Shown here piece by piece: positions 6,279-64,000 of a stretch of DNA of 64,000 bases. The notes under the pieces were generated by a model, which saw only the letters and a program-made list of their open reading frames with translations, searched no databases and was not told where the DNA came from. A program made the translations under genes and the position numbers. The number at the start of each line of letters is the position of its first letter. Position 1 is the first letter of the stretch. The DNA comes from Candidatus Bipolaricaulota bacterium (GTDB taxonomy: Bacteria > Bipolaricaulota > Bipolaricaulia > RBG-16-55-9 > DRXL01): assembly GCA_938091745.1 (NCBI GenBank), contig CALLJK010000002.1, forward strand, positions 26,842 to 90,841, given 5' to 3'.

Positions 6279-8915
6279 GTGATAACCGTGCCTGAAGAGT
6301 TTGCGCGACCGTTGCCCAAGAACCGCGAAGCTGAACAGGTCGTCCTCGGCGCGGCGATGCTTGAGCCCGAGAGCGTCGTCCCTCAGCTTCTACAAGCCCT
6401 CCAGCCCGACGACTTCTATTGGAAAGCGCATCAGATCATCTATCGAGTGATTCTGGAGCTCTTTGAAGGTGGCAAACCCGCCGATCTGATCACCGTGGGG
6501 AATCGTCTGGATGAGCTGAACAAGCTCGACGATGTCGGGGGCCGCGCGTATCTGAGCGAGCTGCTCACCAAAGTCACCACGACCGCCAGCGTGCCCTACT
6601 ATGCGGAAATTATCAAGAAAAAAGCAGTGCTGCGGGCGCTCATCGAGGCCGGCCATGAGATCGCTGAGCTCGGCTTCAACGAAGAGCAAGAACTCGAGCC
6701 TTTGCTCGATGCCGCCGAAGAGAAGATCTTCCAGATCTCACGCTTCCAGCTCACGCACGACTTCCATCTCATCCGAGATTTCTTACATGAGCATCTGGAG
6801 CGCCTTGAGAAGCTCCAACGCGATCCGTCCCAACACGCGGTGACGGGCTTGCCCACCGGCTATAGGAGATTCGACGAGATGACCGCGGGGCTGCAGCCGT
6901 CCGATCTCATCGTGATCGCGGCGCGCCCCAGCATGGGCAAGACGTCACTTGCGCTTTCTATCGGGCGCAATATGGCCTTGCGCTTCGGCAAGTGCGTCGG
7001 GTTCTTTAGCTTAGAGATGACCAAAGAACAGCTGCTCGAGCGCTTGCTCTGCGCCGAGGCGCGGATTAACTTGCATCGGTTGCGCGGAGGGTATCTGCAG
7101 ACAGACTCCGAGTCCTGGCGACGCATCATCAACGCAGCAAGTAAGCTCCAGAACAGTAAGATTATCATTGACGACACGCCCAGTATTTCAGTGTTAGAGC
7201 TGAAAGCCAAAGCGCGGCGCATGAAGACCGAGCATAATCTCGACATACTCTTTGTCGATTATTTGCAGTTAGTCGAAGCAGGAGCCCACGCAGACGTGCG
7301 CGAACAAGAGGTCGCGTACATTGCGCGGTCGCTCAAGGGATTAGCACGAGAGCTCAATATCCCTGTCGTAGCAGTCTCTCAGTTGTCGCGCGCGCCGGAG
7401 CGCCCGCCGCGCAGACCGAGATTGTCAGACTTGCGCGAATGCGTGACCGGCGATACCCAAGTCATCGACGGCAAGACTGGCAACTTAATAGAAGTCCGTT
7501 GTGTTAGCCCTGGCATGACCGTGATCGCCTTAGATCATAAACAACGCTTATGCCCAGCGCGTGTCCTCGACGTAATCCCCAAGGGAGCCAACCAAGTATA
7601 TAGAGTCCGCACGCAGACAGGACGCGAGATCCGCGTGACTGCTGCACATCCGTTTCTGACAGCAGAGGGATGGCGTTCGTTGCGGCATTTGGCTCCAGGG
7701 GATTTGATTGCGACCATGCGCTCCGTCACACTCCCTGGGGAGCCGCGTCCGCCGGAACTCTGCCGATTCCTTGGATATCTGACTGGTGACGGCACATATC
7801 TGCGCCATCGCGAAGTCGGGTTTATCAACTCGGACCCTATCTTAGTTCAAGACGTTGTAGATATTGCGCGAAAGTATTTTAATATAGAGATCTCCGCCCG
7901 GCGGCGTTTTACAAGTGAACAAGTGACATTCGTCAAGAAGAACTCGAATGGGTACGGGCGGCCCTTTGGCAACCCCGTGCGGAATTGGCTCCGTGAGCTT
8001 GGCCTCGTAGGGCAGCGATACGACCAGAAGAGCGTTCCTGATTGGATTCTCACTGCTGATACCCCAAGTATCTCGGAGTATTTAGGAGGCCTCTTCGCCA
8101 CTGATGGGACTATAGTGCGCAGATCGAGAGGATATTGGGATGTGAAACTCAGCACGACAAGCCTCCAGTTAGCCAAACAAGTTCAGTATCTGTTGGCTCG
8201 CTTGGGTATTGTGACAGGGATAACATCAGGCTATAAGAGTGTGAAAGCTACATGCCCTATTTATACGGTGTATGTGTCACGCAGCGAAGAGAACCTGAGA
8301 AAATTTGCCTTGCTTATCCCCTTACGAGGGAAAAAGGCCCTGTTAGCTCAGGAGCTTCTCCTCTCCATGCCGCGTCAGCAGACCAATAGTGTTCTTGAGG
8401 CCTTGCCCCCATCTGTTTCTCTGCTGATCAATCAACGGCGTCGAGAACAGGGCCTCTCTCACGCAGCTGTGGGATATCGCGCTGTAGGAAAGCGCATCTC
8501 TCGCTCACGCGCGGCCGCGGTTGCTGAACGATTGCGTGATCCATTGTTGCATCAATGGGCTACCAGCGATCTTCTCTGGGAGAGGGTCGTCTCAATCACG
8601 CCTGAGGGTGAGGAGCCAGTCTGGGATTTGGTCGTAGAAGGCGTGCACAATTTTGTTGCGAATGGGATTATCGTTCACAATTCCGGGGAGATCGAACAGA
8701 CAGCTGATGTCGTGCTTTTTCTATATCGCGAAGACACGGGCAGCGAAGAGAGCCCCGACGAAGCAGAGAGCTCCTCGCCCTTAGTCCACGAGACCGAGAT
8801 CATCATCGGGAAGCAGCGCAACGGCCCAACGGGATCGTTCCCGTTACTCTTCCATCGCGCCTACACAAGCTTTGAAGAATACTACGTAGGCGAAGAGGAA
8901 GGGCCGCGGTTTTAA
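6279..8915 (+). CDS. dnaB: Replicative DNA helicase DnaB, interrupted in-frame by a 414-aa intein (extein about 464 aa)
   Basis: DnaB N-terminal domain and Walker A (ARPSMGKTS). The conserved SDLRE | SGEIEQTAD motif is split by the intein sequence C-VTGDT...IIVHN. Confidence 0.92.
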   Translation: MITVPEEFARPLPKNREAEQVVLGAAMLEPESVVPQLLQALQPDDFYWKAHQIIYRVILELFEGGKPADLITVGNRLDELNKLDDVGGRAYLSELLTKVTTTASVPYYAEIIKKKAVLRALIEAGHEIAELGFNEEQELEPLLDAAEEKIFQISRFQLTHDFHLIRDFLHEHLERLEKLQRDPSQHAVTGLPTGYRRFDEMTAGLQPSDLIVIAARPSMGKTSLALSIGRNMALRFGKCVGFFSLEMTKEQLLERLLCAEARINLHRLRGGYLQTDSESWRRIINAASKLQNSKIIIDDTPSISVLELKAKARRMKTEHNLDILFVDYLQLVEAGAHADVREQEVAYIARSLKGLARELNIPVVAVSQLSRAPERPPRRPRLSDLRECVTGDTQVIDGKTGNLIEVRCVSPGMTVIALDHKQRLCPARVLDVIPKGANQVYRVRTQTGREIRVTAAHPFLTAEGWRSLRHLAPGDLIATMRSVTLPGEPRPPELCRFLGYLTGDGTYLRHREVGFINSDPILVQDVVDIARKYFNIEISARRRFTSEQVTFVKKNSNGYGRPFGNPVRNWLRELGLVGQRYDQKSVPDWILTADTPSISEYLGGLFATDGTIVRRSRGYWDVKLSTTSLQLAKQVQYLLARLGIVTGITSGYKSVKATCPIYTVYVSRSEENLRKFALLIPLRGKKALLAQELLLSMPRQQTNSVLEALPPSVSLLINQRRREQGLSHAAVGYRAVGKRISRSRAAAVAERLRDPLLHQWATSDLLWERVVSITPEGEEPVWDLVVEGVHNFVANGIIVHNSGEIEQTADVVLFLYREDTGSEESPDEAESSSPLVHETEIIIGKQRNGPTGSFPLLFHRAYTSFEEYYVGEEEGPRF
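7440..8681 (+). mobile_element. Intein with LAGLIDADG homing-endonuclease domain inside dnaB (Cys1 at 7440-7442, terminal HN at 8676-8681, +1 Ser at 8682)
   Basis: Hint blocks are present: A CVTGDTQV, B TAAHPF, F VWDLVVEG, G NFVANGIIVHN-S. Two LAGLIDADG motifs (LGYLTGDGTY, LGGLFATDGTI). Length is 1242 nt, a multiple of 3. Confidence 0.88.
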
Positions 8916-28577: not shown

Positions 28578-29438
28578 ATGCGCTCTGTATCGCTTGCCCC
28601 TGGACTGGAGTTGATAGACCTCGCACTCTTCTTGCCTAGGATGAGAGCGCTTGCTATCGCTGACATTCACTTGGGGATTGAAGACGCTCTCAAAGACGAG
28701 GGCGTTCTCGTGCCCAGACAGCATCTTGCCCAAGTGCAGCAGAGATTGGAGCGCATCTTCAAGGAGCTTGCTGTCACGCCCTCGGAGCCGTTACAAAAAA
28801 TAATAATTAATGGCGACCTGCGCCATCAGTTTGGCCCGCTCTCGCGCGTCGAACATAAAGAATCCAAAGAATTCTTGCGCTGGCTTGCTAACTGGACAGA
28901 GCAGATCGTGCTGGTTGAGGGCAATCACGACGGCTCGCTGAAACACTTTGCTAACGAACGCATCACGGTGACGAAACGCTATAGCGAAGGGGACTGCTGG
29001 TTCGTGCATGGGGATGAGGCCCTCACCCCCAGGCTTCGCCTGGACCGTCCATCTTCGCCAGCCTCTGGCTGGCGAAGGCAAAGCCCATGCGCAGCGTGCC
29101 CCAAGGGCGGGGTGAGGGCCTGGCTCGTCATCGGCCATGAGCACCCTGCTGTAGGCTTGCGCGATCCCGTCACCGGGCGCACAGAAGTTTATAAGTGCTT
29201 TCTCGTCGGAACTTTTCGAGAGTACGATCTCTTAGTCTTGCCGTCGTTCAATCAGCTCGTGCGGGGAAGCGATCTGCTCAGAGAGCAGCCCCTCTCACCG
29301 TTTGTGCAGCAGAGCGAACTCGAAGAGTTTTCAGTCTACGTTGTCTCCGATGACGGCTCTCTCTACGAATTTGGCCCTCTACGCCGATTGTTCCATTCCT
29401 CCTCCCTCTCCCCTGTGAGGGAGAGGGGCAGGGGGTGA
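28578..29438 (+). CDS. Calcineurin-like metallophosphoesterase carrying an in-frame palindromic-element insertion
   Basis: DIHLG, GDLRH, GNHD and VHGD motifs. Start taken as the Met at MRSVSL (28578), before the DIHLG motif; the ORF track starts at 28515 inside glnS. Residues encoded by the element are LTPRLRLDRPSSPASGWRRQSPCAACPKGGVRA. Confidence 0.75.
   Translation: MRSVSLAPGLELIDLALFLPRMRALAIADIHLGIEDALKDEGVLVPRQHLAQVQQRLERIFKELAVTPSEPLQKIIINGDLRHQFGPLSRVEHKESKEFLRWLANWTEQIVLVEGNHDGSLKHFANERITVTKRYSEGDCWFVHGDEALTPRLRLDRPSSPASGWRRQSPCAACPKGGVRAWLVIGHEHPAVGLRDPVTGRTEVYKCFLVGTFREYDLLVLPSFNQLVRGSDLLREQPLSPFVQQSELEEFSVYVVSDDGSLYEFGPLRRLFHSSSLSPVRERGRG
29018..29120. repeat. Family-1 palindromic element (12-bp TIR GGCCCTCACCCC/GGGGTGAGGGCC, internal 11-bp hairpin CTTCGCCAGCC/GGCTGGCGAAG) inserted inside the metallophosphoesterase CDS without breaking the frame
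   Basis: ~90% identical to the intergenic copy at 40600-40703. Confidence 0.8.
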
Positions 29439-29444
29439 GGGAGC
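29401..29444. repeat. Short G-tract palindromic element (CCCTCTCCC-CTGTGA-GGGAGAGGG followed by GCAGGGGGTGAGGGAGC) forming the 3' end of the phosphoesterase gene and the SD of folC
   Basis: Hairpin read directly. GAGGGAG sits 6 nt before folC ATG 29445. Confidence 0.6.
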
Positions 29445-30722
29445 ATGACCTACGAAGCGATGCTCCAGAAGCTTTATAATCTGAAGGGCACCGGGCTTGA
29501 TTTAGAACGCATTTTAGGTCTATTAGGGAACCCGCACAAAAGCTTTCGCGCGATTCGCGTCGCCGGCACCAACGGCAAGGGCTCGGTCTGCGCGTTTTTA
29601 GCGCAGATCTTGCAAGAAGCGGGCTTTCGCGTCGGGCTGTTCACCTCGCCCCATCTTGTCTATCCCGAAGAGCGCATATGCGTCAATGGGCGTGAGATCT
29701 CGCACGAGGAGTTTCACGCCCAGTTTGAGCGCATCTGGGCCGTGATCGAAGAGCTGTACGGAGACAGAAGCGAAGAGCACGCGCGGTTCTTTGAAGTGTT
29801 GACGCTCATGGCGCTCGATTACTTTCGCCAGCAAAAAGTAGACTGGGCGGTGATTGAGTGTGGTGTGGGCGCGCGCACTGACGCTACACGAGCCATTTCA
29901 GCGCCCGTCGCTGTCCTGACGAACGTAGAGCTCGACCATCGCGAATCGCTCGGGGAGACGATCGCGCAAATCGCGTATCAGAAAGCTGCTGTCGTCTCCG
30001 AGGGGGGACTGTTGATCACAGCTGAGTCCAAGCCCGAAGCGCTCGCGGAGATTGAACGCGAGTGTCGGCTGAAGAACGCGCGGCTTCTCCAAGTCGATCT
30101 CTCAAGGCTACAAGCGAAATCAAACAGTTGGGAGGGCCAACGCTTCGACTGGCGCGATTGGCGAGACTTAGAAATTTCGCTCTTAGGAAGCTACCAACTG
30201 CAGAATGCCGTCTTGGCTGTAGAAGCTATGGATGCTTTAGGCGAGCACGTTGTTCCTGAGAGCGCGATTCGCGCAGGGCTGCACACAGCGCGCTGGCCTG
30301 GTCGGATGGAGTTGCTCTGCAAAAACCCCTATGTTATGCTAGACGGGGCGAAGAACCCTGCGGGGATGCGGGCGCTGCGCACAGCGCTCTCCCCACTGGA
30401 ATACGAACGCTGTATAGTAGTCTTAGGGATATCTGATCGCAAGGACGCAGCAGCCATGATCCAAGAGATCGTGCCGGCAGCTGATAGAATAATCGTCACG
30501 CGCGCGGCGTTCCGTGGGGTCGATCCAGAATATTTAGCCTCTTTGATTCGGCCCTCTGGTGTGCCGTGTACTGTTATCTCAAGATCAGATAGAGCCATAG
30601 AATTGGCCCTCGCTCAAGCACACCACCGCGATCTCATCTGCGTGACCGGCTCGCTCTTTCTCGTGGGCGAGATCCGAGCCTGGTGGAAAGGACAGGAGCA
30701 TTCTTGTAAGAATTCTCATTGA
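29445..30722 (+). CDS. folC: Bifunctional folylpolyglutamate synthase / dihydrofolate synthase
   Basis: Mur-ligase family. Motifs VAGTNGKGS, and DGAKN/DGAHN-like. Confidence 0.88.
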   Translation: MTYEAMLQKLYNLKGTGLDLERILGLLGNPHKSFRAIRVAGTNGKGSVCAFLAQILQEAGFRVGLFTSPHLVYPEERICVNGREISHEEFHAQFERIWAVIEELYGDRSEEHARFFEVLTLMALDYFRQQKVDWAVIECGVGARTDATRAISAPVAVLTNVELDHRESLGETIAQIAYQKAAVVSEGGLLITAESKPEALAEIERECRLKNARLLQVDLSRLQAKSNSWEGQRFDWRDWRDLEISLLGSYQLQNAVLAVEAMDALGEHVVPESAIRAGLHTARWPGRMELLCKNPYVMLDGAKNPAGMRALRTALSPLEYERCIVVLGISDRKDAAAMIQEIVPAADRIIVTRAAFRGVDPEYLASLIRPSGVPCTVISRSDRAIELALAQAHHRDLICVTGSLFLVGEIRAWWKGQEHSCKNSH

Positions 30723-34475: not shown

Positions 34476-35357
34476 TCAAGCCCTCGCGCGATTGATTGCT
34501 TCTCTGAGGGCTATCGCGGCCTCGCGGGCAGCTTGTGCAAAGTCTTCGCCGTGGGAGGCAAAAATCACACTCCGTGAAACGTTTATGATCGCGAGTTCTT
34601 TGTAAGAATTCACGCTGTTCTTGATGGCTTGGGCGAGATCGCCTGCTTGCGCACCCACGCCCGGCACTAAGATAGGCATCTCGTCGCCCACGATCCGACG
34701 AACGATTGCTAATTCATCCGGGGCTGTCGCTCCGACGACGACTCCCACGTTCTTGCGCGTGTTCCATTCGCGGGCTTTCTCGGCCACGTACTGGTAGAGA
34801 GGCTTGCCTTCCTCACCCTCACCCCTCGAGCCCCCTCTCCCCTCCGAGGGAGAGGGGAAGGGGTGAGGGGGCAAGCAGTTGAGTTCTTGGAAATCTCGTG
34901 CTCCGGGATTGGAGGTGCGCACCAGAAGAAACGCGCACTTGTCTGAGTACTCTAAAAACGGTGCGACGGAGTCGAAGCCCATCAAGGGATTGACCGTCGC
35001 GGCGTCGAAGCGATAATACTCAAAGAGCGCTTTAGCATAAGCCCGCGCCGTATTTTCGATATCTCCGCGCTTGGCGTCCCCAATGACGGGGATCTCTGTG
35101 GGGATCAGCTCACGCGTTTTATAGAGAATCTCTAGCCCCACCGGGCCGAGCATCTCATAGAATGCGAGATTGGGTTTATACGCGCAGACGAGATCGCTCG
35201 TCGCTTCGATGATCGCCTTGTTAAACTCTAAAACAGCGTGAGCGCCGTGGCGCTCTCGCAGGAACGCTGGAATTTTTGAAAGCTCTGAATCAAGCCCGAT
35301 GCAAAGCCAACTGTTATTCCGGTGCGCAATCGCACACAGCTTGTCAAGAAAGCCCAT
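34476..35357 (-). CDS. pyrF: Orotidine 5'-phosphate decarboxylase (type 2) carrying an in-frame 25-codon palindromic-element insertion
   Basis: LCIGLD, VIGDAKRGDI and RTSNPGA motifs. The inserted segment CLPPHPFPSPSEGRGGSRGEGEEG lies between the RTSNPGARDFQEL and KPLYQYV blocks. Confidence 0.85.
   Translation of the reverse strand: MGFLDKLCAIAHRNNSWLCIGLDSELSKIPAFLRERHGAHAVLEFNKAIIEATSDLVCAYKPNLAFYEMLGPVGLEILYKTRELIPTEIPVIGDAKRGDIENTARAYAKALFEYYRFDAATVNPLMGFDSVAPFLEYSDKCAFLLVRTSNPGARDFQELNCLPPHPFPSPSEGRGGSRGEGEEGKPLYQYVAEKAREWNTRKNVGVVVGATAPDELAIVRRIVGDEMPILVPGVGAQAGDLAQAIKNSVNSYKELAIINVSRSVIFASHGEDFAQAAREAAIALREAINRARA
34802..34876. repeat. 75-nt nested palindromic element (TIR GCTTGCC/GGCAAGC, outer CTCACCCCT/AAGGGGTGAGG arms, inner CCCTCTCCC-CTCCGA-GGGAGAGGG hairpin) inside pyrF. 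It contains a G-quadruplex-type G-run array.
   Basis: Read directly. The segment CCTCCGAGGGAGAGGGGAAGGGGTGAGGGGGCAAG recurs identically at 63350-63386. Confidence 0.8.
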
Positions 35358-39637: not shown

Positions 39638-40591
39638 ATGAAAACAATAAGATTTGTGTTACTCATTGTTGGGGTGCTCTTCGTCGCCGGAACGCTCTTG
39701 ACCAGCTGCGGTGGTGGAGTCAAGCCCCCCACAGCCGTGATCACTAAGCCGCAGAGTGGTGCGCAGTTTACAGTCAACCAAGCTATCGAGTTTGCAGGAT
39801 CAGCCAAGGACGATGCCGGCAAGGAGGTCACAAAAGATATCGTCTTTGAGTGGGACTTTGGCGATGGCACAACAGAGAAGGGCCAAACCGTCTCTCACAC
39901 ATACAGCACCAGTGGGACGTACACCGTGAAGTTGACGGTCAAGACCGCGGCTCAAGCCAAAGAGACAAGCCCCAAGCTCGAAGCGAAGCAGACAGCCCAG
40001 ATCGAGATCACAGTGACAGCGGCCCTGTCGGTGGCGATCTCGGCGAGCGTCATAGAGGGGCCAGCTCCGTTAGAAGTCTCATTCACTGCGGAAGTCCAGG
40101 GCATAGCAGCCAGCTACACTTGGGACTTCGGCGACGGCTCCACAAGCTCCGAAGCCAACCCAACGCATACGTTCACGACTGAGGGGACGTACACGGTGAA
40201 GCTCATCGTGACTGCCCCTGACGGCAGCACCGCTTCTGCAGAGAAGACGATCACCGTGACAGCACCACAACAAGCGTCACGGAACCTTTATATTGTCAAA
40301 ATGGTGAGCACTTCTGATGGCCGGCATTTCTTTGACCCAGCAGAGTTGACCATCAGAGTCGGCGAGACGGTTCGCTGGGTGAGCGAGTGTGCAGAGGGCA
40401 TGACCTGTGTCTATTCGGTCCAAGCGTATCCCGATAAGATCCCCGCGGGCGCGGAAGCCTTCAACTCAGGGCTCCTTATGGAGCAGGGACAGTCATTTGA
40501 GTATACGTTCACTGTCCCTGGAGAATATGAATACTTCTGCTTGTCCTATGAGCCCATGGGGATGAAGGGGAAGATCATCGTGCAGCCGTAA
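39638..40591 (+). CDS. Lipoprotein with two PKD domains and a C-terminal cupredoxin (plastocyanin-like) domain
   Basis: Lipobox LTSCGG. Two WDFGDG PKD signatures. The C-terminus HFFDP...[17 protein letters not shown] is plastocyanin-like, but Tyr occupies the usual CxxH position. Confidence 0.7.
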
Positions 40592-40599
40592 TGAGAGGA

Positions 40600-40703
40600 G
40601 GCCCTCACTCCCCAGGCTTCGCCTGGACCGTACATCTTCGCCAGCCACAGGCTGGCGAAGGTGAAGCCCACGCGCAGCGTGCCCGTAGGGCGGGGTGAGG
40701 GCC
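40600..40703. repeat. Intergenic full-length family-1 palindromic element (12-bp TIR GGCCCTCAC(T)CCCC/GGGGTGAGGGCC)
   Basis: ~90% identical to the intragenic copy at 29018-29120. Same internal CTTCGCCAGCC/GGCTGGCGAAG hairpin. Confidence 0.8.
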
Positions 40704-40712
40704 TTAAATATC

Positions 40713-41738
40713 ATGCGAAAGATTATAGACCTGCGCAGCGACACAGTCACGAAGCCGACGCCCCCGATGCGTCGCGCCATGGCCGAGGCTGAAGTCGGCG
40801 ACGACGTCTTCGGGGAAGATCCTACGGTCAATAAGCTCCAAGAATACGCGGCTCAGCTCTTCGGACGCGAAGCAGCGCTCTTTGTCCCTTCGGGGACGAT
40901 GGGCAACCAAATCGCCATCAAAGTCCACACCCAGCCAGGGGATGAAGTCATTGTCGAAGAAGCTTCCCATATCTTTAACTCCGAGATGGCGATGATGGGA
41001 GCGTTTTCGGGGGTTATCCCCCGCCCGATCCCTAGTGAGCGTGGGTTCCTGCGCTGGGAGCAGATCGAGCGCGCTATCCGACCGAAAGTGTATTACTATG
41101 CTCAAACGCGCCTGATCTGCTTAGAAAACACTCATAACTTCAAGGGCGGAGGCGTCTATCCTGTAGAGTGGGCCAGAGAGATTATCGAAAGGGCGCACGA
41201 GCGTGGCTTGGCCGTGCATCTCGATGGGGCGCGAATCTTCAACGCTGCTATTGCGACTGGGCGCTCAGTGAAGGAGCTGACGGAGGGCTTTGATTCTGTG
41301 ATGTTTTGTCTCTCCAAGGGGCTAGGAGCGCCGGTGGGCTCGATGCTCGTCGGTTCAAAAGAATTCATTGAGAAAGCCCGACGGGTGCGCAAGATGCTCG
41401 GTGGGGGGATGCGCCAGGTCGGGATTCTCGCTGCCGCAGGACTCTATGCGCTCGAGCATCATGTTGAGCGGCTTGCCGAAGATCATGAGAACGCCCAGCT
41501 GCTCGCGAAGGTTCTCCAAGAGATCCCCGAGGTGCGCCTCGAGCCTGTCGAGACCAATATCGTGATCTTCGAGCTCTCCAAGACGCCTGCCGAAAGGCTA
41601 ATTGCTGAGCTCAAACAGAGAGATATTTTAGCTTTAGCAATCGGGCCACGTCGGATACGCTTAGTAACACATCTTGACGTATCGCGAGAAGACGTGCTAT
41701 ACGCCGCTCAGGCTATCCGAGAGATTCTCCAAAAATAA
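40713..41738 (+). CDS. ltaE: Low-specificity L-threonine aldolase
   Basis: [13 protein letters not shown]-terminus, Gly-rich PSGTMGNQ, and the PLP-lysine region [11 protein letters not shown]. Confidence 0.85.
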
Positions 41739-43262: not shown

Positions 43263-45161
43263 ATGAGGCGCAGGGGGAATAATAGCATAGGTCGAGCGTT
43301 CGTGCTCACGCTGCTGTTGGTTATAGTCGGTCTGAACACCCCAGGGTTGCTCTCGCAGTCCCAGATCGAGAGTCCAGAAGCCCCGCGCGTGATATACGTG
43401 CTCCTGCCCACGGGCCGATGCGTCATCGCGCCACCAGGTTTGCCCGCAGATAATTGCCCCTCAGGGACTCTCCCCCCGAAAGAGACTTTTATCAATTGGA
43501 TCGCAGCCGATGGGAGTGACTTTGAGGGAGCTATCGGGTACAAAGATATCAATAAAGACATAATCAAAGTGACATTTCGCGTCATCGAAGCGACCGAAGT
43601 GAAGGACGCCCCGCCAGGGACGTTTCGAGCGGGGCAGATCTTCAGCTTTGAGCCCCCAGCCCAGACAAGCGAGACAGGGGAATTTGGCTTTCGCATCTTC
43701 ACGACCGTGCCGCAAGATGTCACCCTCGAAGTGACGCTCGAAGATGCCAAGAAGAACGTCAGCCAACCCAAGATATTTTCTTTTAAAGCCGTCGGCCCAG
43801 AGCCGATCATCAGCAAGATCATCTTCCCTACGGAGATCCCCCTCGGGGCTGAGCAGAAAGTCCTAGTCGGTTTCATAGATCGTGAGGGCCAATTGAGCCG
43901 CGTCTACTTTCAGCTGATCAACTTTGATCCCAAGCGTGTGGGGGACTGCTCGCTGCCCATCGACCCCAATGGCATCGATGTGAGCGAGCAAGTCTTGGGC
44001 GACAAAGAAGGCGAGCTAAGTTTTTCCATGTCGTGCAACAGCGCGCAGCGGCTCAAGTTCCACGTCGTCTTAGTGGACCGCCAAGGCAATCGGAGCGAGC
44101 GGAGCATCCTGCGGCAGCAAAGCACGTTTGAGTTTATCGCAGGGCGCAAAGTCGCTGATGGGCTCTTCTTCCTCGATCAATTTGGGCGAGATGGCAGCGA
44201 ACTTGGCGCATTCCGGAGCCCCCAGGGAATCGCTGTGGACAGTAAAGGGTTCATCTACGTTGCCGATACGGAGAACCATCGCATTCAAGTCTTTGATCCG
44301 AGCACGTTCAAACTCACGGAAAAGCTCCCACGGGCTGTGTGGGGTAGCCGATGTCTGTTGCGGACCGGGGAGGGGTGTCGCGATCCCGATGGCGGGGGGC
44401 CGCTTGTTCCAGGCGATGGGCAGTTTGACGGCCCAACAGATGTCGCCGTCGACGCAGCAGGCAATGTCTATGTCGTGGACAGCGGCAATCATAGAATCCA
44501 GAAATTTGACGCTAACGGGAAGTTCTTGGCTAAGTGGGGCACACGTGGCAGTGGCCCTGGCCAGTTTGATGCCCCTATCAGCATTGGACTGGACAGCACG
44601 GGAAGGTTCGCCTACGTGGCTGATAAAGGGAACCATCGCATTCAGAAATTTGACATTAGTCGGTCCCCAGTGCAATTCATAACCCAATGGGGGAGCGAAT
44701 GTAATCTCACGATGACACCTCCCACAGGGCGCTGCGTCGATCCCGATGGTGCCGGTCCACGCCAGATTGGCGATGGGCAATTTTTTGAACCGAAGGCAGT
44801 GGCTGTCGATAGAGCAGGAAATGTCTATGTCTCAGATACAGGGAATCATCGCATTCAGAAATTCAAAGAGAACGGGGAGTTTCTGCTCAAGTTTGGGCGC
44901 AAAGGCTTTGCCCCAGGGCAGTTCGATACCCCTCGCGGTTTAGCCTTCACGGACCAAGGGAACTTGCTCGTCGTTGATCAAGATAATCATCGTGTCCAGG
45001 AATTTGACAGCGAAGGCAAATTCGTGCGGCAATGGGGTGTGCAAGGCACGGGGGAAGGGGAGTTCAACGCGCCGCAAGATATTGCTCTCGACAGCGCGGG
45101 CAATATCTATATTGTCGAACTGCTCAACAATCGCGTGCAAAAATTAGGGGACCTAAAATAG
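43263..45161 (+). CDS. Secreted NHL-repeat beta-propeller protein with N-terminal domains of unknown function
   Basis: Signal peptide. The C-terminal half carries six NHL repeats with recurrent NHRIQ(K/V/E)FD motifs. Confidence 0.75.
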   Translation: MRRRGNNSIGRAFVLTLLLVIVGLNTPGLLSQSQIESPEAPRVIYVLLPTGRCVIAPPGLPADNCPSGTLPPKETFINWIAADGSDFEGAIGYKDINKDIIKVTFRVIEATEVKDAPPGTFRAGQIFSFEPPAQTSETGEFGFRIFTTVPQDVTLEVTLEDAKKNVSQPKIFSFKAVGPEPIISKIIFPTEIPLGAEQKVLVGFIDREGQLSRVYFQLINFDPKRVGDCSLPIDPNGIDVSEQVLGDKEGELSFSMSCNSAQRLKFHVVLVDRQGNRSERSILRQQSTFEFIAGRKVADGLFFLDQFGRDGSELGAFRSPQGIAVDSKGFIYVADTENHRIQVFDPSTFKLTEKLPRAVWGSRCLLRTGEGCRDPDGGGPLVPGDGQFDGPTDVAVDAAGNVYVVDSGNHRIQKFDANGKFLAKWGTRGSGPGQFDAPISIGLDSTGRFAYVADKGNHRIQKFDISRSPVQFITQWGSECNLTMTPPTGRCVDPDGAGPRQIGDGQFFEPKAVAVDRAGNVYVSDTGNHRIQKFKENGEFLLKFGRKGFAPGQFDTPRGLAFTDQGNLLVVDQDNHRVQEFDSEGKFVRQWGVQGTGEGEFNAPQDIALDSAGNIYIVELLNNRVQKLGDLK

Positions 45162-45177
45162 CTCCAAGGAGGCGACT

Positions 45178-46452
45178 ATGCACCGTATCGCGAGAGTGCT
45201 GGCTGTCGCTATCGTATTGGGCGCGCTCAGCACAGTATCAGCGGGGCTAGCGCAGAGCAATCTGCAGTTGGTCTTCAAAGTGCCTGATGGCAGCCCTATT
45301 CGTTCTTCGCCCGTGATTGACCTAGCGAAGAACGCCATCTATTTTGGGGCCGATGACGGGAATCTCTACGCGATCCCACTGATCAGTTCTGAGCAACCTC
45401 GACGAGCCAAGTGGGTCTTTTCGCCCGACCCTGATCCTGCGAAGCGCCACCCCATGCGTACTTCCCCAGTGATTGACGAAGCGCGCAACAGAATCTATAT
45501 CGGGGCCGATGACGGCAAGCTCTACGCTGTGGACCGAGACACGGGGCAGCTCGTCGAGGGATTTAACCCTGCTCAGCGGGCTGCTCCCATTCGTGTGCCC
45601 CCGGCGCTGGATCAGCCCAGGAGTACACTCTATGTCGCTGGGGATGACCAGCAACTCCTGGCTCTCAACGCCCTGACTGGTGAGCTTGGTGGCCCAACTA
45701 ACCCTACATTCAATGCGGCAAAAGGGGCCATTCGCACTGCGCCCATCATCGATTTTGTCAAAAGTGCGGTCTATTTTGGCTCCGACGATGGGAAATTCTA
45801 TGCGATTGATCGCGATAATTTTCAGACGAACGTCTTTAGCCCTGTAGTAATTGGTAGCCCGATCCGAGGCTCGCCACTGTTGGATATCCTTGGAACTGAA
45901 GGCGCCGTGATCTATTTCGGTGCAGACAACGGGGTCTTCTACGCAATTGATCGTGAAGGCAAAGAACTCTATACCTTCGAGACCTTCGGGCCAGTCCGCA
46001 CCAAAGCCGCTGTCGACCCTGTCAAGAACGCCGTCTATTTTGTCTCCGATGACGGCAAGCTCTATGCGCTCTTTCGGAGCGACGAGAAAGATAGCAAGGG
46101 CCAGCCCATAAAGGGCAGGGAGCGCGGCAAGCAGAAATTCGCTGTCGCTATCGTGACCGATAACAATCCCAATCCCTTCGACGGGGACCTGCCGCGCTCG
46201 TCACCAGTCGTTGACCGTCGTCTGGGAGCCACCGGAACAGGGACGATCATCGTTGGGTCTGTGGACGGCAGACTCTACGGGATCAGTCCTGATAGCGGGC
46301 GCGCTCAGTTTATTCTCGCTGTGCCAGGTGCCGGCATCGATCCCCGCGCGGCGATCCGTACTACCCCAGCGCTCTACGTCAGCGGCCCCAGTGCGTCTAT
46401 AGATATCTATGTCGGCGCAGACGACGGTGGGCTCTACGTTGCACGACGATAA
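45178..46452 (+). CDS. Secreted PQQ-like beta-propeller repeat protein (BamB-like fold)
   Basis: Signal peptide. Repeated YFGADDGNLYAI, YIGADDGKLYAVD and YFGSDDGKFYAID blades. Confidence 0.75.
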   Translation: MHRIARVLAVAIVLGALSTVSAGLAQSNLQLVFKVPDGSPIRSSPVIDLAKNAIYFGADDGNLYAIPLISSEQPRRAKWVFSPDPDPAKRHPMRTSPVIDEARNRIYIGADDGKLYAVDRDTGQLVEGFNPAQRAAPIRVPPALDQPRSTLYVAGDDQQLLALNALTGELGGPTNPTFNAAKGAIRTAPIIDFVKSAVYFGSDDGKFYAIDRDNFQTNVFSPVVIGSPIRGSPLLDILGTEGAVIYFGADNGVFYAIDREGKELYTFETFGPVRTKAAVDPVKNAVYFVSDDGKLYALFRSDEKDSKGQPIKGRERGKQKFAVAIVTDNNPNPFDGDLPRSSPVVDRRLGATGTGTIIVGSVDGRLYGISPDSGRAQFILAVPGAGIDPRAAIRTTPALYVSGPSASIDIYVGADDGGLYVARR

Positions 46453-46532
46453 GGGATTGGACTTTGCAAATATTACGAGCTAGAATGATCTTAGAAAAAG
46501 ATCTGGCATACACCATCAAGGAGGTGGCATTC

Positions 46533-49500
46533 ATGGATCGCTGGGCGCGGTGCACCGGGGAAATATCGCGAACGTGGGTGCGTAGTCTTGGAGTAATTCT
46601 GATTGTTCTCTTTACTGTTATGGTGTGGGGAGGGGGGTCAAGCCGTTGGACGGTGTGGAGCCAAGCGGGTGCTCCTGCTTTGCCGGAGCTGCATCCTATC
46701 AGTCTTGTGCTCAGCCCTGCCTCCCCAGTCGATAAGGGTTTTGCGGTGGTCGCACGCGCGAAGATCGTCAATACTGGCGGCAGCCCCGCGCCGCGCTTTG
46801 CTGTCGAATTTTTCTATAGATTGAAGAGCGACCCCACCCGCCCGTGGGTGAGCTTCCCCGACGGCAAGGGACTTGTTCTTCTGTCACAAGGGCTGAGCCC
46901 CCGTGACCAAGCGATCACTGTTGAGGGAACGCTCGACACATCGAAGGCCGAAATCGAGCCGGGAAACTACGAGATCAAAGTCTTAGTCGATTCTACCAAT
47001 CAGATCTCCGAGGAAGACGAGACAAATAACGAATTAATCGTGGGCTTGCAGATTCGCCCGTCACGGCTTAACAAGCCCGATCTCATTCCCATCGCGCTCG
47101 CGTTCGATCCGGCGTCCCCGTTGGATATTAACGGCAGGACAACAGTAACGGTGACGATTCGCAACAGCGGCCCTGTCGATGCCGGTACGTTCGATGTGCA
47201 GTATCTCTTCTGTAAGCTTCCAACGCCGCGCAGCACTTGCCCACCCGATCAGTTAGTCGAATTCGCCCGAGCAACTATCTCTGAAGGGCTGAGGGCAGGC
47301 GAGGAGCGCTCTGAAAAGTCTGAATTCCCCAACCCCCGTGACCCTCGTATGGCTCAGCTCGAGCCTGGGACGTATCTCATCCACGTGCGAGTTGACCCGG
47401 TAACTAAAGAACAACCGAATGGTGCTGTCGAGGAACAGGACGAAGCGAACAATGCTTTGACAGCATATCTCATGGTCAAAGGGCCGGAGCTTTACCCTGA
47501 AAGCCTTGTGCTCACACCAACACCAGTTCGTGCTGGTGATGAAGTGCTCGTCACGGCTCAGATCGCGAATGCTGGGACAGCCCCAGCTGAAGGGGTCCTA
47601 GTGGCGTTCTTCGTGAACGAGCGCCGTTTTGCGACCGTAACTGTACCAAAGATAGCTGAAGCTTCCAGGCAAACAGCTCAGGTCTCCTTAAAGACAGGAG
47701 AACTCTCCTTGCAGCCGGGTATTCATGAGCTGCGCGTTGTCGTAGACCCCGACGATCGTATCAGTGAACTCGATGAGTCCAATAATATTCTGACGACAGC
47801 GCTGACTTTACAGCCTCCTCTGCCCCGATTGCCGGAGCTTGCTCCAAAGAGCTTATTCGTGACGCCGGCATCGCCTATTGAGCAAGGGAAGGGCACAGTC
47901 ACCGCGGAGATCATCAACAATGGGATGAAAGTCGCCGAGGGGTTTGACGTCGAATTCTCCGTGCGCGAGGCGGGACGCCTGCGCTGGAACCCCATCCCGT
48001 GCACGGCCAACTGCACGAACAATAAGCTCAATCCCAATGCCGAGCTGACCGCGCAGGCGCAACTGCCCTCGCTCACCCCAGGGGCTTATGAAGTGCGCAT
48101 TGTTATAGACCCCCAAGGGCGCGTCGCAGAACTAGACGAGACGAACAACGAGATGGTCATCGGCTTTCGCGTGATTCTCCCGCGCCGGCCCGATCTGGCG
48201 ATCACAGCGTTCGCATTTGACCCGCCATCGCTGGCCGCGCATCGTGGGCAGCCCGTGCGCATACTCTTCACGGTCGAAAACATCGGTGACGCTCCCGCTG
48301 AAAGCTCCGAAGCGCAATGCGCGTATCGTCGTCTGGAGGACGTGACAGCTACGCCGGTCCCCTTCGCACGGGTTGCTGTGCCTCCTCTTGTGCCGGGCGG
48401 AAAGTTCGCTGCCGAGTGTCGGTTGGAGACAGGCCCGCCAGTGCGCCCAGGCTTCTATGAGCTGACAGTAACTCTTGACCCGCAGAACCGTATCGAAGAA
48501 CAGAACGAAGCCAATAATATCGTTACCAGTGGCACGGGTATTCCAGGCCAGCCAGGCCAAGGGCAAGCCTTGCTCATCTTCGGGCCGGATCTCTTCCCCG
48601 ATCGTGCTACGCTCAAAGTCAAGCGCGCGAACACTCCAGAGACCCCCGTAGCGCCGATCAGCTTGGACATCACCCAAGGCGAGATGCTCGATCTTGAAGT
48701 GACGGTCAGAAACACTGGGCAAGTCGCTGCCGGAGGCTTCGACGTCGCCTTCTGCATCCGTGAGTATTTCTCCCAGCAGCCGTGCACGGAGATCGGGACA
48801 CGATCCCGCACGACAGGCCTCGGGCTGACTGACGAATTCATCGCGAAGACCCAAGTGAGCACGGAGCCCTTCGCGCCAGGAGTCTATGAGATCGGGGTCA
48901 TCGTCGATCCGCCGACAGCGGACCAGCCCTACGGGCGCGTCGAAGAAGTCAGCGAGCTCAATAATTACATTGGTGGGCCTCGCGCCGCCCGCGGCCTCCA
49001 AGTGATCATCGTTGGGAAGCCAGATTTGACTTTCCGTGAGCCGCTGGTCTTCCAACCCAGCGGGCCCGTGCCCATCGGCACGCCCTTGGGGGTCTTCGCC
49101 GATGTACAAAACATTGGAGCCGGGCGGACGACCCGTGACTTCAAAGTAGAATTCGCTTTCCGCCGTGTGGACGATCCCGCCCAGCCTAGCCCAGAGTTTA
49201 AGGTCTTCGGCACGGCGATCATCACCGAGCTTGAGGTGGGACCGGACAAAGCCAAACAAGTCAAAGTCGAGCTGGATACGAGCAATCTCGTCCCGGGTCT
49301 TTACGAGATCCGCGTCACGCTCGACCCGGAGAACGTGATCCCAGAGCTCAATGAGACCAATAACATGCAAACAGCACGAGTGGCCATCGGCGGCGCAGTC
49401 GGGCTGGTCGACCTCGCCGTGACCAGCTTGACCCTCACGCCGAATCAGCCAACCGTATCACGCGGGCAGATCGTTCGGTTCTCCGCTGTGATTGCGAACT

Positions 49501-49763
49501 TAGGAGCTGTGCCCTCGGGGCCGTTCTCCGTCGAATTTAGCTATCGCAATCTGCTCGGCTCCTCAGGAACCGATCCGGTCTTCAGCCGCCAGACCGTGAC
49601 GAACTTAGATGGCGGTGCCCGGACGACTCTCGTCGCGCAGTTGAACACGATCTCGCTCAACCCAGGAACGTATGAGATCGCCGTGACGGTGGACCCGGAG
49701 AATCGCATCTCCGAATCAGATGAGACTAATAATCGTCTGGTGATCTTTCTCACTGTGAACTGA
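46533..49763 (+). CDS. Giant secreted/cell-surface protein with 8 tandem CARDB domains
   Basis: AAGGAGGTG RBS 6 nt before ATG 46533. Single N-terminal TM/signal segment. Eight ~130-aa repeats, each ending in a D/E-E/S/T-N-N motif (ETNNE, EANNA, ESNNI, ETNNE, EANNI, ELNNY, ETNNM, ETNNR). Confidence 0.8.
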   Translation: MDRWARCTGEISRTWVRSLGVILIVLFTVMVWGGGSSRWTVWSQAGAPALPELHPISLVLSPASPVDKGFAVVARAKIVNTGGSPAPRFAVEFFYRLKSDPTRPWVSFPDGKGLVLLSQGLSPRDQAITVEGTLDTSKAEIEPGNYEIKVLVDSTNQISEEDETNNELIVGLQIRPSRLNKPDLIPIALAFDPASPLDINGRTTVTVTIRNSGPVDAGTFDVQYLFCKLPTPRSTCPPDQLVEFARATISEGLRAGEERSEKSEFPNPRDPRMAQLEPGTYLIHVRVDPVTKEQPNGAVEEQDEANNALTAYLMVKGPELYPESLVLTPTPVRAGDEVLVTAQIANAGTAPAEGVLVAFFVNERRFATVTVPKIAEASRQTAQVSLKTGELSLQPGIHELRVVVDPDDRISELDESNNILTTALTLQPPLPRLPELAPKSLFVTPASPIEQGKGTVTAEIINNGMKVAEGFDVEFSVREAGRLRWNPIPCTANCTNNKLNPNAELTAQAQLPSLTPGAYEVRIVIDPQGRVAELDETNNEMVIGFRVILPRRPDLAITAFAFDPPSLAAHRGQPVRILFTVENIGDAPAESSEAQCAYRRLEDVTATPVPFARVAVPPLVPGGKFAAECRLETGPPVRPGFYELTVTLDPQNRIEEQNEANNIVTSGTGIPGQPGQGQALLIFGPDLFPDRATLKVKRANTPETPVAPISLDITQGEMLDLEVTVRNTGQVAAGGFDVAFCIREYFSQQPCTEIGTRSRTTGLGLTDEFIAKTQVSTEPFAPGVYEIGVIVDPPTADQPYGRVEEVSELNNYIGGPRAARGLQVIIVGKPDLTFREPLVFQPSGPVPIGTPLGVFADVQNIGAGRTTRDFKVEFAFRRVDDPAQPSPEFKVFGTAIITELEVGPDKAKQVKVELDTSNLVPGLYEIRVTLDPENVIPELNETNNMQTARVAIGGAVGLVDLAVTSLTLTPNQPTVSRGQIVRFSAVIANLGAVPSGPFSVEFSYRNLLGSSGTDPVFSRQTVTNLDGGARTTLVAQLNTISLNPGTYEIAVTVDPENRISESDETNNRLVIFLTVN

Positions 49764-61583: not shown

Positions 61584-61631
61584 CTTGCACCAAGAGCGCT
61601 GTTTGTGGTATTATTCACAAGGTGAAACCCT

Positions 61632-63269
61632 ATGACCGCGAAGCCCTGGCTCCGACACTACCCTGAAGATATCCCCCACACTCTGAATTACCCAGATAAG
61701 CCACTCTATGACTTCTTGGATCGCTCGGCAGAGCAGTACGAGAAAGCACCGGCACTGATCTTCTTCGGGCAGCGAATCTCGTACGGGCAGTTGCGTGAAC
61801 TCACTGATCGCTTTGCGGCAGCACTCGTGCAGATCGGGGCCAAGCCCGGCGAAAAGATCTCGCTGATGCTCCCCAATATCCCGCAGTTTGTCATCGCGTT
61901 CTACGGCGCGCTCAAGGCAGGCCTCACCGTCATCCAGACCAACCCCCTCTACACAGAAGACGAACTCCAAGTCATCTTGGGAGACTCCCAAGCTGAGACG
62001 CTCATCACTCTAGATCGCTTCTATGAAAAAGTCTTGCACATTCGAGGGCAGACGAACCTCAAGCGCATCATTGTTACGGGGGTGCACGAGTTCTTCCCTG
62101 GGCTGCTGCGATTGGGATATCTGCTCAAGGAGCGCCCAAAGAGAATAAGACCCGCTCCCCCCAATGTCTATCTCTTCTCCGAGCTGATTCGTAGCGCTCC
62201 CGCGCATCCCCCAGAGATCCCTGTACGTCCCAGTGATATCGCGCTCTTTCAGTATACGGGAGGGACGACAGGGATTCCAAAGGGCGCGATGCTCACCCAT
62301 AGAAACTTAGTGGCGAACACGCTGCAATCGTGCTCGTGGTTCCCGCGCGCCCGCATGGCTCAAGAGACATGTCTGTGCGTGCTGCCCCTCTTCCACGTCT
62401 ATGCTATGACCGTCGCGCTCAATCTCTCCATGGCGCTCGCTGCGGCGCTCATCTTGGTCCCGCGCTTCCAGATAGACGAACTCTTAAAGATTATAGATCG
62501 TGAGCGTCCGTCGCTCTTCCCCGGCGCGCCGACGCTGTACGCCGCTATTGCGAATCATCCTCGAGTAAAAGAGTATCACGTCAGCTCGATCAAAGCATGT
62601 CTGAGCGGCTCAGCGCCGCTTCCGTTAGAAGTCAAACGGCGCTTTGAGGAGCTGACCGGCGCGTCGCTCGTTGAGGGCTATGGGCTTTCAGAAGCTTCTC
62701 CCGTGACCCACTGCAACCCGCTCTATGGGCGACAAGTTCCGGGAAGCATCGGCATTCCCTTCCCCGACACCGATGCCAAGATCGTGGACCCCACGTCAGG
62801 TCAGGAGTTGCTCGTCGGGGAGATCGGGGAACTCGTCATCCAAGGCCCCCAGGTGATGGCCGGCTATTGGAACCGTCCCGAAGAGACAGCGATGGCACTG
62901 CGCGGCGGCTGGCTGCACACGGGCGATCTGGCTCGCATGGACGAAGACGGCTATTTCTATATCGTTGACCGTCTCAAAGAGATGATCATCTGTTCGGGGT
63001 TAAAAGTCTACCCGCGCGAGGTCGAAGAAGTCTTATATAAGCATCCCAAAGTGCTCGAAGCAGCCGTGATTGGGGTGCCCGATGCCTATCGTGGCGAGAC
63101 GGTGAAAGCATTGATTGTTCCCAAGCCCGGGACAAGCCCGACTGCTGATGAGATCAAAGCATTTTGCGCGGAGCACCTGGCGAAGTACAAAGTGCCCACG
63201 ATCGTCGAGTTTCGTGACTCACTGCCCAAGAGCATCGTGGGGAAGATATTGAAGAGAGATCTGCGATGA
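61632..63269 (+). CDS. fadD: Long-chain-fatty-acid--CoA ligase (ANL superfamily)
   Basis: YTGGTTGIPKGAMLTH AMP-binding motif and GYGLSEASP. Confidence 0.85.
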   Translation: MTAKPWLRHYPEDIPHTLNYPDKPLYDFLDRSAEQYEKAPALIFFGQRISYGQLRELTDRFAAALVQIGAKPGEKISLMLPNIPQFVIAFYGALKAGLTVIQTNPLYTEDELQVILGDSQAETLITLDRFYEKVLHIRGQTNLKRIIVTGVHEFFPGLLRLGYLLKERPKRIRPAPPNVYLFSELIRSAPAHPPEIPVRPSDIALFQYTGGTTGIPKGAMLTHRNLVANTLQSCSWFPRARMAQETCLCVLPLFHVYAMTVALNLSMALAAALILVPRFQIDELLKIIDRERPSLFPGAPTLYAAIANHPRVKEYHVSSIKACLSGSAPLPLEVKRRFEELTGASLVEGYGLSEASPVTHCNPLYGRQVPGSIGIPFPDTDAKIVDPTSGQELLVGEIGELVIQGPQVMAGYWNRPEETAMALRGGWLHTGDLARMDEDGYFYIVDRLKEMIICSGLKVYPREVEEVLYKHPKVLEAAVIGVPDAYRGETVKALIVPKPGTSPTADEIKAFCAEHLAKYKVPTIVEFRDSLPKSIVGKILKRDLR

Positions 63270-63285: not shown

Positions 63286-63417
63286 GGCCCTCACCCCCTT
63301 CCCCTCTCACCCTCACCCTTGTAGGGGCAGGTCTGAGACCTGCCCCTACCCCCTCCGAGGGAGAGGGGAAGGGGTGAGGGGGCAAGAGGGGTGGCGCAGC
63401 CGCCGGGGTGAGGGCCC
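63286..63417. repeat. Composite nested palindromic element: family-1 TIRs (GGCCCTCACCCCC ... GGGGTGAGGGCC) enclosing a 13-bp hairpin (GTAGGGGCAGGTC-TGA-GACCTGCCCCTAC) and the CCTCCGAGGGAGAGGGGAAGGGGTGAGGGGGCAAG module also present inside pyrF
   Basis: Read directly. It fills the fadD-PPTase intergenic region. Confidence 0.75.
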
Positions 63418-63442
63418 TCCCCTCGACACAAGGTGAAGCCCC

Positions 63443-64000
63443 ATGACTGCGAAGCCCTGGCTCCAACTTGCGACAGAGCGTTCCTTCCCAGAACCCTCTC
63501 AATGGTTGACTGCAGAAGAGCTTCGTACGTTTCAGAGAATCAAAGCATGGCAACGCCGTCAAGACTGGCTGGCGGGGCGCTGGGCCGCTAAAGGGCTTGT
63601 ACGAGAATATCTTCGTGAGAGAGCGAATCTTGCGCTTGATCCTGCCCAGATTGAGATCGGGAACGCTCCTACAGGAGCACCATTGCTCCAGCGGCCGCTC
63701 TGCAGCGAGATCCATATCTCGATTGCTCACAGTGCGGGGTATGGATTAGCGGGGCTGGCGCTGGGCGCCCCCATTGGTGTGGATTTACAACATATCCGTG
63801 CGGTGCGTCTTGATTTCCACGAGCGCGTGCTCAGCGAGCACGAGCGCGCGCAGCTTGCGCATCATTTCTCTGGGCGGGAGGGCGTGCTCGTCTTCTGGGC
63901 GCTCAAAGAAGCAGCGATCAAAGCCCAACGAACTCGTCCGACCCCGGCCCTCCGTGAGATCAGCGTCACGCTGACAGAGCCGGGGCAGGCTGAGATCTCT
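63443..64000 (+). CDS. 4'-phosphopantetheinyl transferase (Sfp/EntD type), 3' partial at window edge; not in the supplied ORF track
   Basis: Open frame from ATG 63443 to the window end. GVDL and FWALKEAAIKA PPTase motifs. AAGGTGA SD. Confidence 0.7.
   Translation, partial: MTAKPWLQLATERSFPEPSQWLTAEELRTFQRIKAWQRRQDWLAGRWAAKGLVREYLRERANLALDPAQIEIGNAPTGAPLLQRPLCSEIHISIAHSAGYGLAGLALGAPIGVDLQHIRAVRLDFHERVLSEHERAQLAHHFSGREGVLVFWALKEAAIKAQRTRPTPALREISVTLTEPGQAEIS

Follow-up and report, generated by a model that had tools for sequence, protein, structure and literature searches.

A probable class-1 intein with a nested LAGLIDADG homing endonuclease in the DnaB helicase of a Candidatus Bipolaricaulota bacterium

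What is the in-frame insertion that splits the gene for the replicative DNA helicase DnaB in a Candidatus Bipolaricaulota (Acetothermia) bacterium, and can it still excise itself from its host protein and move between genomes? The gene lies in a stretch of 64,000 nucleotides (nt), which is referred to in its entirety as the window, and the insert studied is one part of the dnaB open reading frame (ORF) at positions 6279-8915. The analysis described here indicates that the insert is very probably a canonical class-1 intein with a nested LAGLIDADG homing endonuclease, placed in the loop of the H4 motif of DnaB.

The precursor ORF (6279-8915, plus strand, as are all features of this locus) encodes 878 residues plus a stop codon and is assigned by Pfam to a replicative DNA helicase that is split by an intein. 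By the ORF, codon reading and Pfam, the N-extein occupies 6279-7439 and consists of 387 residues that end ...PRLSDLRE in helicase motif H4. The intein follows at 7440-8681, with 414 residues from Cys1 to His413-Asn414, and is classified as class 1 from Pfam, solved relatives, an AlphaFold2 model and fold matches. The codon TCC at 8682-8684 is read as the +1 Ser, with which the C-extein begins and which would be the nucleophile in trans-esterification. The C-extein (8682-8912) has 77 residues, SGEIEQTADVV..., and is delimited by the ORF and by intein-free alleles of relatives. Direct reading of the DNA gives an insert of 1242 nt, or 414 codons, in frame and with zero stops, bordered by TGC at 7440-7442 (Cys1) and AAT at 8679-8681 (Asn414). 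The codon reading thus bears out an earlier note on this DNA, which had described a 414-residue in-frame insertion at 7440-8681 that runs CVTGDT...IIVHN and is followed by Ser.

Four Pfam domains are found in the precursor, each of which passes its curated cut-off and lies far beyond chance: the DnaB N-domain (2.7e-30), DnaB_C (9.5e-91), which is interrupted at residue 388, Intein_splicing (8.6e-22) and LAGLIDADG_3 (1.1e-16, with a cut-off of 22.5 bits). For the intein as a part, the Intein_splicing value is 1.8e-22, and for its endonuclease insert the LAGLIDADG_3 value is 1.5e-17. With the insert removed, the exteins read ...RLSDLRE-SGEIEQTADVV..., and the predicted junction, RLSDLRESGEIEQTADVV, is letter for letter that of seven natural intein-free dnaB alleles (L008-L011 and L013-L015) from related genomes. 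These alleles read RRPRLSDLRESGEIEQTADVV, which is the predicted ligation product of the window gene, and they answer the suggestion, made in the same note, that relatives be checked for intein-free dnaB.

All of the splicing blocks of the Hint domain that had been reported for the insert could be located (A, B, F and G), and the conservation of their catalytic residues was counted in an alignment of 103 full-length DnaB relatives with inteins at H4 sites. Block A (CVTGDTQVIDGKT, 7440-7478) supplies the Cys1 nucleophile, which is present in 103/103 relatives. Block B (GREIRVTAAHPFLT, 7620-7661) contains the TxxH motif with Thr67 and His70, the His being found in 103/103 relatives and Thr or Ser at the former position in 102/103. 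Block F (EPVWDLVVEGVHNFVANG, 8613-8666) carries Asp396 (Asp in 102/103), and block G, IIVHN (8667-8681), ends with the penultimate His413 (His in 101/103) and the terminal Asn414 (Asn in 103/103). The window copy has the consensus state at C1, T67, H70, D396, H413, N414 and S+1, and SG follows HN in every close relative at the RE|SG site. The essential nature of dnaB and the retention of an intact element in seven genomes lend indirect support to the predicted splicing, and the insert is almost certainly a splicing-competent intein.

The same residues bear on the explanation that a non-splicing Hint domain, such as a bacterial intein-like domain, was inserted, or that an assembly artefact joined dnaB to foreign sequence. 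Nothing beyond the uncharacterised source of the sequence speaks for this explanation, whose likelihood is close to nil. The insert and its junction have every one of Cys1, TxxH, the Asp of block F, His-Asn and Ser+1; the insertion is precisely in frame, and its removal regenerates a natural allele. Moreover, seven genomes that were assembled independently carry the same insert at this codon, and the RE|SG site holds 97 of the inteins found in the best 150 representative-cluster matches. Residues, junction and recurrence refute the explanation for practical purposes. The earlier note had itself stated that its intein call would fall if the catalytic residues were missing or if the junction were not regenerated; the residues are there, and the ligated extein equals the natural empty alleles.

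The segment between the splicing blocks is a homing-endonuclease insert (residues 105-375, 7752-8564) that consists of a two-motif LAGLIDADG core and a C-terminal helical region, and it is the segment that is absent from the mini-inteins of relatives. LAGLIDADG motif 1 (LCRFLGYLTGDGTY, 7758-7799, with the core LGYLTGDG) ends with the putative catalytic Asp117, and motif 2 (ISEYLGGLFATDGTI, 8070-8114, with the core LGGLFATDG) with the putative catalytic Asp222. In the AlphaFold2 model of the intein, which was built from an alignment of 13 sequences and has a mean predicted local distance difference test score (pLDDT) of 90.8 and a predicted template modelling score (pTM) of 0.90, helix 105-117 has Asp117 at its C-terminal end and helix 208-222 has Asp222 at its own, which is the expected arrangement in LAGLIDADG helices. 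Position 117 is Asp in 78/103 relatives and Asn in 20/103, and position 222 is Asp in 101/103; the window copy has Asp at both. The substitution of Asn for the first LAGLIDADG Asp in 20/103 full-length relatives, nearly all relatives keeping the second Asp, is an observation of its own, and those relatives could be a sub-lineage of inactivated or nicking endonucleases.

The model was compared with solved structures by Foldseek, and the best match in the Protein Data Bank (PDB) is TliVMA (7qss, E 5.6e-24, template modelling (TM) score 0.76), followed by PI-PfuI, PI-TkoII and PI-SceI, all of which are endonuclease-bearing inteins. Lower matches are the Ssp and Npu DnaB mini-inteins, which match the splicing domain, and I-DmoI, which matches the endonuclease core. 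The solved chains nearest to the intein in sequence are those of Npu and Ssp DnaB (E about 1e-18). The insert is a class-1 intein of the Hint fold with a nested monomeric, two-motif LAGLIDADG homing endonuclease. Two endonuclease motifs had been noticed earlier, and their positions, the LAGLIDADG_3 match and the fold confirm them. The description of the element as a full-length LAGLIDADG intein in dnaB at SDLRE|SG likewise agrees with the Pfam domains, the fold matches, the catalytic residues and the junction.

Which of the DnaB intein sites is occupied is a separate matter. The window insertion falls between Glu and Ser of DLRE|SG in the DNA-binding motif H4, such that the N-extein ends ...LSDLRE and the C-extein starts SGEIEQTAD. 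A survey by Novikova et al. (2016, PMC4760082) distinguishes three DnaB sites, of which b belongs to the P-loop and a and c are H4-motif sites two residues apart. Site a in H4 hosts Msm DnaBi2 and Mtu DnaB, and site b in the P-loop hosts Msm DnaBi1 and Mle DnaB (Kelley et al. 2018, PMC6195587). In the Ssp DnaB constructs (PDB 6frh), SIEQ directly follows the intein, which gives the site as RESG|SIEQ, and the window site is two residues upstream of it. The window intein therefore fits the published site c, the letter being assigned from the two-residue spacing between a and c that the survey states. The DnaB-b label that had been suggested for comparison does not hold, given that b is the P-loop in both of these sources (PMC4760082 and PMC6195587) and that the P-loop of the window DnaB (ARPSMGKTS) is uninterrupted.

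Two other assignments were ruled out. Site a (RESG|S; Ssp, Npu and Mtu DnaB) is incompatible with an N-extein that ends RE and a C-extein that starts SGEIEQ. RE|SG is also not a new insertion site, as PMC4760082 already describes two H4 sites two residues apart and most relatives have their intein at RE|SG. When 1.84 billion representative proteins were searched exhaustively with HMMER, 10,288 matched at E<=1e-3; of the inteins that could be delimited in the best 150 of these, RE|SG holds 97, RESG|S holds 20 and the P-loop of DnaB about 25. The window DnaB has Glu (in SGEIEQ) at the position where site-a inteins use their +1 Ser, and therefore site a would have no nucleophile in this protein.

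The history of the element can be read from its relatives. A scan of one genome per GTDB species placed the host in Candidatus Bipolaricaulota (Acetothermia) and yielded 17 dnaB loci (L001-L017), of which L012 and L016 are fragments that end before the intein site, and L017 is a distant intein-free dnaB from a Bacteroidales metagenome-assembled genome (MAG) with 39% extein identity that served as the outgroup. The closest full-length relatives came from this genome scan and from the exhaustive representative search; a word-indexed protein search (15 hits) missed them. A precursor identical to that of the window was not found in the assembly collection. Inteins of 414 residues are found at the same codon in L001-L005 and L007, with zero stops or frameshifts, in precursors that are 69-91% identical to that of the window. 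With the window included, seven full-length copies are therefore known among the Bipolaricaulota relatives retrieved, each from a species-level genome. A copy of 378 residues is present in L006, and both L006 and the database protein P0017 lack residues 307-342, a 36-residue deletion. Three mini-inteins were found in the protein database in equally close hosts, with deletions relative to the window copy of residues 101-338 (P0007), 97-361 (P0008) and 104-375 (P0009); in ascending order of length, these natural mini-inteins have 142, 149 and 176 residues.

Each of the four different deletions leaves another remnant of the full-length sequence. Because the deletions are distinct, the full-length form is taken to be ancestral in the clade and the endonuclease to have been lost independently several times. 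The extein tree intermingles full-length, mini and empty alleles, and the sister of the window on it, L008, is empty. It has the closest host gene of all, 97.8% identical to the window extein.

Is the endonuclease still under selection? Ratios of nonsynonymous to synonymous substitution rates (dN/dS) were estimated pairwise among the seven 414-residue copies by the method of Nei and Gojobori (NG86). The ratio is about 0.10 in the endonuclease insert (residues 105-375), compared with 0.10 in the N-terminal splicing part and 0.04-0.06 in the C-terminal part. The endonuclease is dispensable to the host and to splicing, because three relatives carry mini-inteins with three different deletions. Therefore, the constraint is best explained by selection on the endonuclease's own function, and we infer that the endonuclease of the window copy is probably still active.

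A different function for the same constraint would be regulation of the host. A domesticated intein might splice conditionally in H4, for instance in response to redox state, metal or temperature, so as to regulate the post-translational maturation of the helicase, a role that has been proposed for the DnaB inteins of mycobacteria, and the fold of the endonuclease would in that case be kept for this purpose. The intein does sit in a loop with a function in an essential protein of the replisome, and a precursor that has not been spliced would be expected to lack activity; the whole element is under purifying selection; and mycobacterial DnaB inteins are documented to splice conditionally (PMC6195587, PMC7360933). 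However, seven sister species are intein-free, including the closest, with its 97.8% extein identity, and three lineages have dropped the endonuclease, from which it follows that the host needs neither intein nor endonuclease. In addition, the extra cysteines of the window copy, C21 and C38, are not conserved among the 414-residue copies, and the signals of horizontal transfer described below are those of a selfish element. Domestication is therefore considered very unlikely.

Movement of the intein was assessed from neighbour-joining trees of inteins and exteins for six taxa, in which all of the relatives are MAGs. L002 and L003 pair on the intein tree (bootstrap 100%), in conflict with the extein tree, which groups the window with L003 (96%) and L001 with L002 (96%). 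The synonymous divergence (dS) between the L002 and L003 inteins is 0.24, and their identity is 0.82-0.98 per 60-nt interval, with at least 0.90 in 19 of 21 intervals, compared with a dS of 1.06 and an overall identity of 0.81 for the exteins. This pair, with inteins about 95% and exteins about 80% identical in DNA, is the clearest recent transfer in the set.

The extein DNA next to the intein behaves in a related manner. From identity in 60-nt intervals between the window copy and L008 or L001, the upstream flank at 7380-7439 (60 nt) behaves as a co-conversion tract. In this flank the identity of the window to the empty L008 is 0.68, compared with 0.82-0.98 in nine intervals further upstream, and its identity to the occupied L001 is 0.98, compared with 0.84 overall. 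Over the last 21 nt or so upstream of the intein, the window, L002 and L003 share AGATTGTCAGACTTGCGCGAA, L001 departs from it by one substitution, and the seven empty alleles encode the same amino acids by other codons. When fused across the intein site, the window flanks read ...AGATTGTCAGACTTGCGCGAA|TCCGGGGAGATCGAACAGAC.... Over the last 24 nt upstream, the mean difference is 1.0 nt among occupied alleles and 8.3 nt between occupied and empty ones. Such a pattern is that of a co-conversion tract, one that would have been imported with the intein. No clear signal of co-conversion was found downstream, where the identity to L008 is mildly lower for about 180 nt after the site and that to L001 is not raised.

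Base composition also sets the intein apart. Its GC content at third codon positions (GC3) is 0.546, compared with 0.705 for the extein and 0.656 +/- 0.030 (minimum 0.602) in 25 other genes of the window. Taken together, the dN/dS values, the tree conflict, the travelling flank and GC3 point to recent homing. The clade thus displays a patchy distribution, tree incongruence, co-converted flanks and deviant composition, the marks of an actively homing element, with dS partly saturated. It had been proposed earlier that the homing endonuclease may still be active, and the dN/dS of about 0.10, the incongruence between intein and extein trees and the shared flank strengthen that proposal.

These data also bear on the explanation that the intein is fixed and immobile, such that splicing is kept because dnaB is essential and the window endonuclease has already lost its activity and is heading for deletion, late in the homing cycle. 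Three close relatives have lost the endonuclease by independent deletions and one has the 36-residue internal deletion; inactivation seems common in the family, with the first catalytic Asp changed to Asn in 20/103 members; and the sampled genomes hold no near-identical donor of the window intein. Set against this are the dN/dS of the endonuclease, which equals that of the splicing domain at about 0.10, and its two intact catalytic Asp residues. The length of 414 residues is kept across seven species-level genomes, the clade has seen transfers, as the incongruent trees and the shared flank show, and the non-ameliorated GC3 speaks against long vertical residence. A fixed intein with a dead endonuclease is therefore unlikely, although it is the strongest of the alternatives to a mobile intein.

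Several points count against recent homing by an active endonuclease. The pairwise dN/dS values are not independent of each other, and dS is near saturation for the deeper pairs and undefined for several. Low dN/dS could come in part from selection for folding of the precursor, and not for nuclease activity, and both splicing and cleavage are activities that we infer. The window intein has no near-identical copy, its best match being L001 with an intein dS of 0.49, and its first 180 nt (7440-7620) are just 0.68-0.82 identical to L001-L003. Therefore, the last transfer into the window lineage was not recent. Given that all of the relatives are MAGs, there is a residual chance of a chimeric dnaB assembly. 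Finally, the upstream flank shared by the window and L001 is more conserved than the synonymous sites of the intein, for which simple co-conversion is an insufficient explanation. As a separate observation, the segment 7440-7620 is more diverged from L001-L003 than most of the remaining intein, while the adjoining upstream 60 nt are 0.98 identical to L001, which suggests that the window intein may be of mosaic origin, with a donor outside the genomes sampled.

If the element is a mobile class-1 intein, its life cycle would follow the mechanism of its family, from which the following steps are taken. The 878-residue precursor would be translated first. Cys1 would then undergo an N-S acyl shift to form a thioester, which Ser+1 would attack, and Asn414 would cyclise with the assistance of His413. 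This would release a helicase of 464 residues with an intact H4 loop and the native RLSDLRESGEIEQ junction, together with a free intein of 414 residues. The LAGLIDADG part would cut intein-free dnaB alleles at the RE|SG target, and repair from an occupied allele would copy the intein along with about 60 nt of the upstream flank, resulting in homing.

The remainder of the window gives little sign of other mobile elements. Ten long ORFs were scanned, and no second intein or transposase was found among them. They are ordinary genes, including those for RecG, an M14 carboxypeptidase, an alpha/beta hydrolase, a class-I Glu/Gln-tRNA synthetase, a major facilitator superfamily (MFS) transporter, an acyl-CoA synthetase-type enzyme and others. 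Ten such ORFs and only a few short dispersed repeats lend no support to the earlier suggestion that the genome is permissive to selfish elements.

Three kinds of short repeat were observed. A dispersed pair of 95 nt, 92% identical, lies at 29027-29121 and 40610-40704 and contains the short hairpin GCCAGCC...GGCTGGC; the second copy is between the ORFs at 39638-40591 and 40695-41738. This pair may be an element like the repetitive extragenic palindromic (REP) elements or the miniature inverted-repeat transposable elements (MITEs), and perhaps the "repeat family" of the earlier note. A G/C-rich palindromic element of 44 nt, CCCCTCTCCCCTCCGAGGGAGAGGGGAAGGGGTGAGGGGGCAAG, occurs in three copies of 73-100% identity (29403-29446, 34832-34875 and 63343-63386), two of which are at or after the 3' ends of ORFs, and a terminator-like or REP-like role would suit it. 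The third is a 41-nt pair with 90% identity, at 61616-61656 and 63427-63467. Its first copy spans the start codon of an ORF for an AMP-binding enzyme (61632-63269), and its second copy, 1.8 kilobases downstream, may indicate where a paralogous gene begins. Several large ORFs rich in repeats are also clustered at 43263-49763. They comprise an NHL-repeat beta-propeller protein (43263-45161), an ORF (45178-46452) with internal 78-nt repeats at 45294-46067, and a protein of 1099 residues with six CARDB domains (46464-49763), and these are probably secreted or surface proteins.

For annotation, the 878-residue ORF should be read as a helicase of 464 residues plus an intein, and not as an aberrant DnaB. 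The kind of element is well known, and its host range is extended, modestly, to the candidate phylum Bipolaricaulota; current understanding is unchanged by it. What the clade offers is a series of full-length, partly deleted, three mini and empty alleles, in a host whose Ser-to-Glu change closes site a. A full-length parent with three natural mini-inteins of 142, 149 and 176 residues could guide the engineering of new splicing tools, and the empty alleles of the relatives are a ready set of target sites for the endonuclease.

The series is also of use for a more speculative question. A crude neighbour-joining tree, with Kimura-type distances and without bootstrap, was used for this question alone. 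In this tree the site-a inteins form two groups with a site-c group between them. Because the site-a groups are split in this way, and because the closest solved relatives of the window intein are site-a inteins, it is conceivable, if improbable, that RE|SG (c) and RESG|S (a) inteins are one lineage that was retargeted by two codons at least once. If such a register shift did occur, the Bipolaricaulota series would offer a natural setting in which to ask how an endonuclease and its splicing junction shift register together, and it would also suit the question of why the 60-nt flank is more conserved than the synonymous sites of the intein.

How does this intein compare with known systems? The site-c DnaB inteins of Novikova et al. 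(2016, PMC4760082) share with it the host protein and the codon boundary, and the ten bacterial clades for which that survey lists DnaB inteins do not include Candidatus Bipolaricaulota. Among the papers of the library searched, none links Bipolaricaulota to inteins. The RE|SG DnaB inteins have the same Cys1/His-Asn/Ser+1 chemistry and a LAGLIDADG endonuclease, as in the window, and the full-length relatives outside the Bipolaricaulota clade are 35-44% identical to the window intein. The Ssp and Npu DnaB inteins (PDB 1mi8, 6frh and 4o1r), Mtu DnaB and Msm DnaBi2 are at H4 site a and share the motif, the class-1 mechanism and the +1 Ser; over the C-terminal 40 residues, the Ssp and Npu DnaB inteins are about 60% identical to the window intein. 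The solved Ssp and Npu structures are of engineered or natural mini-inteins without an endonuclease, whereas the window intein is full-length.

In that respect it is more like TliVMA (7qss), PI-PfuI (1dq3), PI-TkoII (2cw7) and PI-SceI (1vde), which also have a Hint domain with a nested two-motif LAGLIDADG endonuclease and match the window intein with TM-scores of 0.55-0.76 and Foldseek E-values down to 5.6e-24. They differ from it in their host proteins and domains of life, with only 12-21% identity, and in that their DNA targets and activities are known.

The broadest comparison is with the homing cycle, which Goddard and Burt in 1999 and Gogarten and Hilario in 2006 are said to have described as invasion, fixation, decay of the endonuclease, loss and re-invasion. 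All of the states that this model predicts coexist in the Bipolaricaulota clade, along with evidence of transfer between lineages. The clade shows zero departure from the model, and is thus an illustration of the homing cycle and not an exception to it, in the form of an unusually complete natural snapshot.

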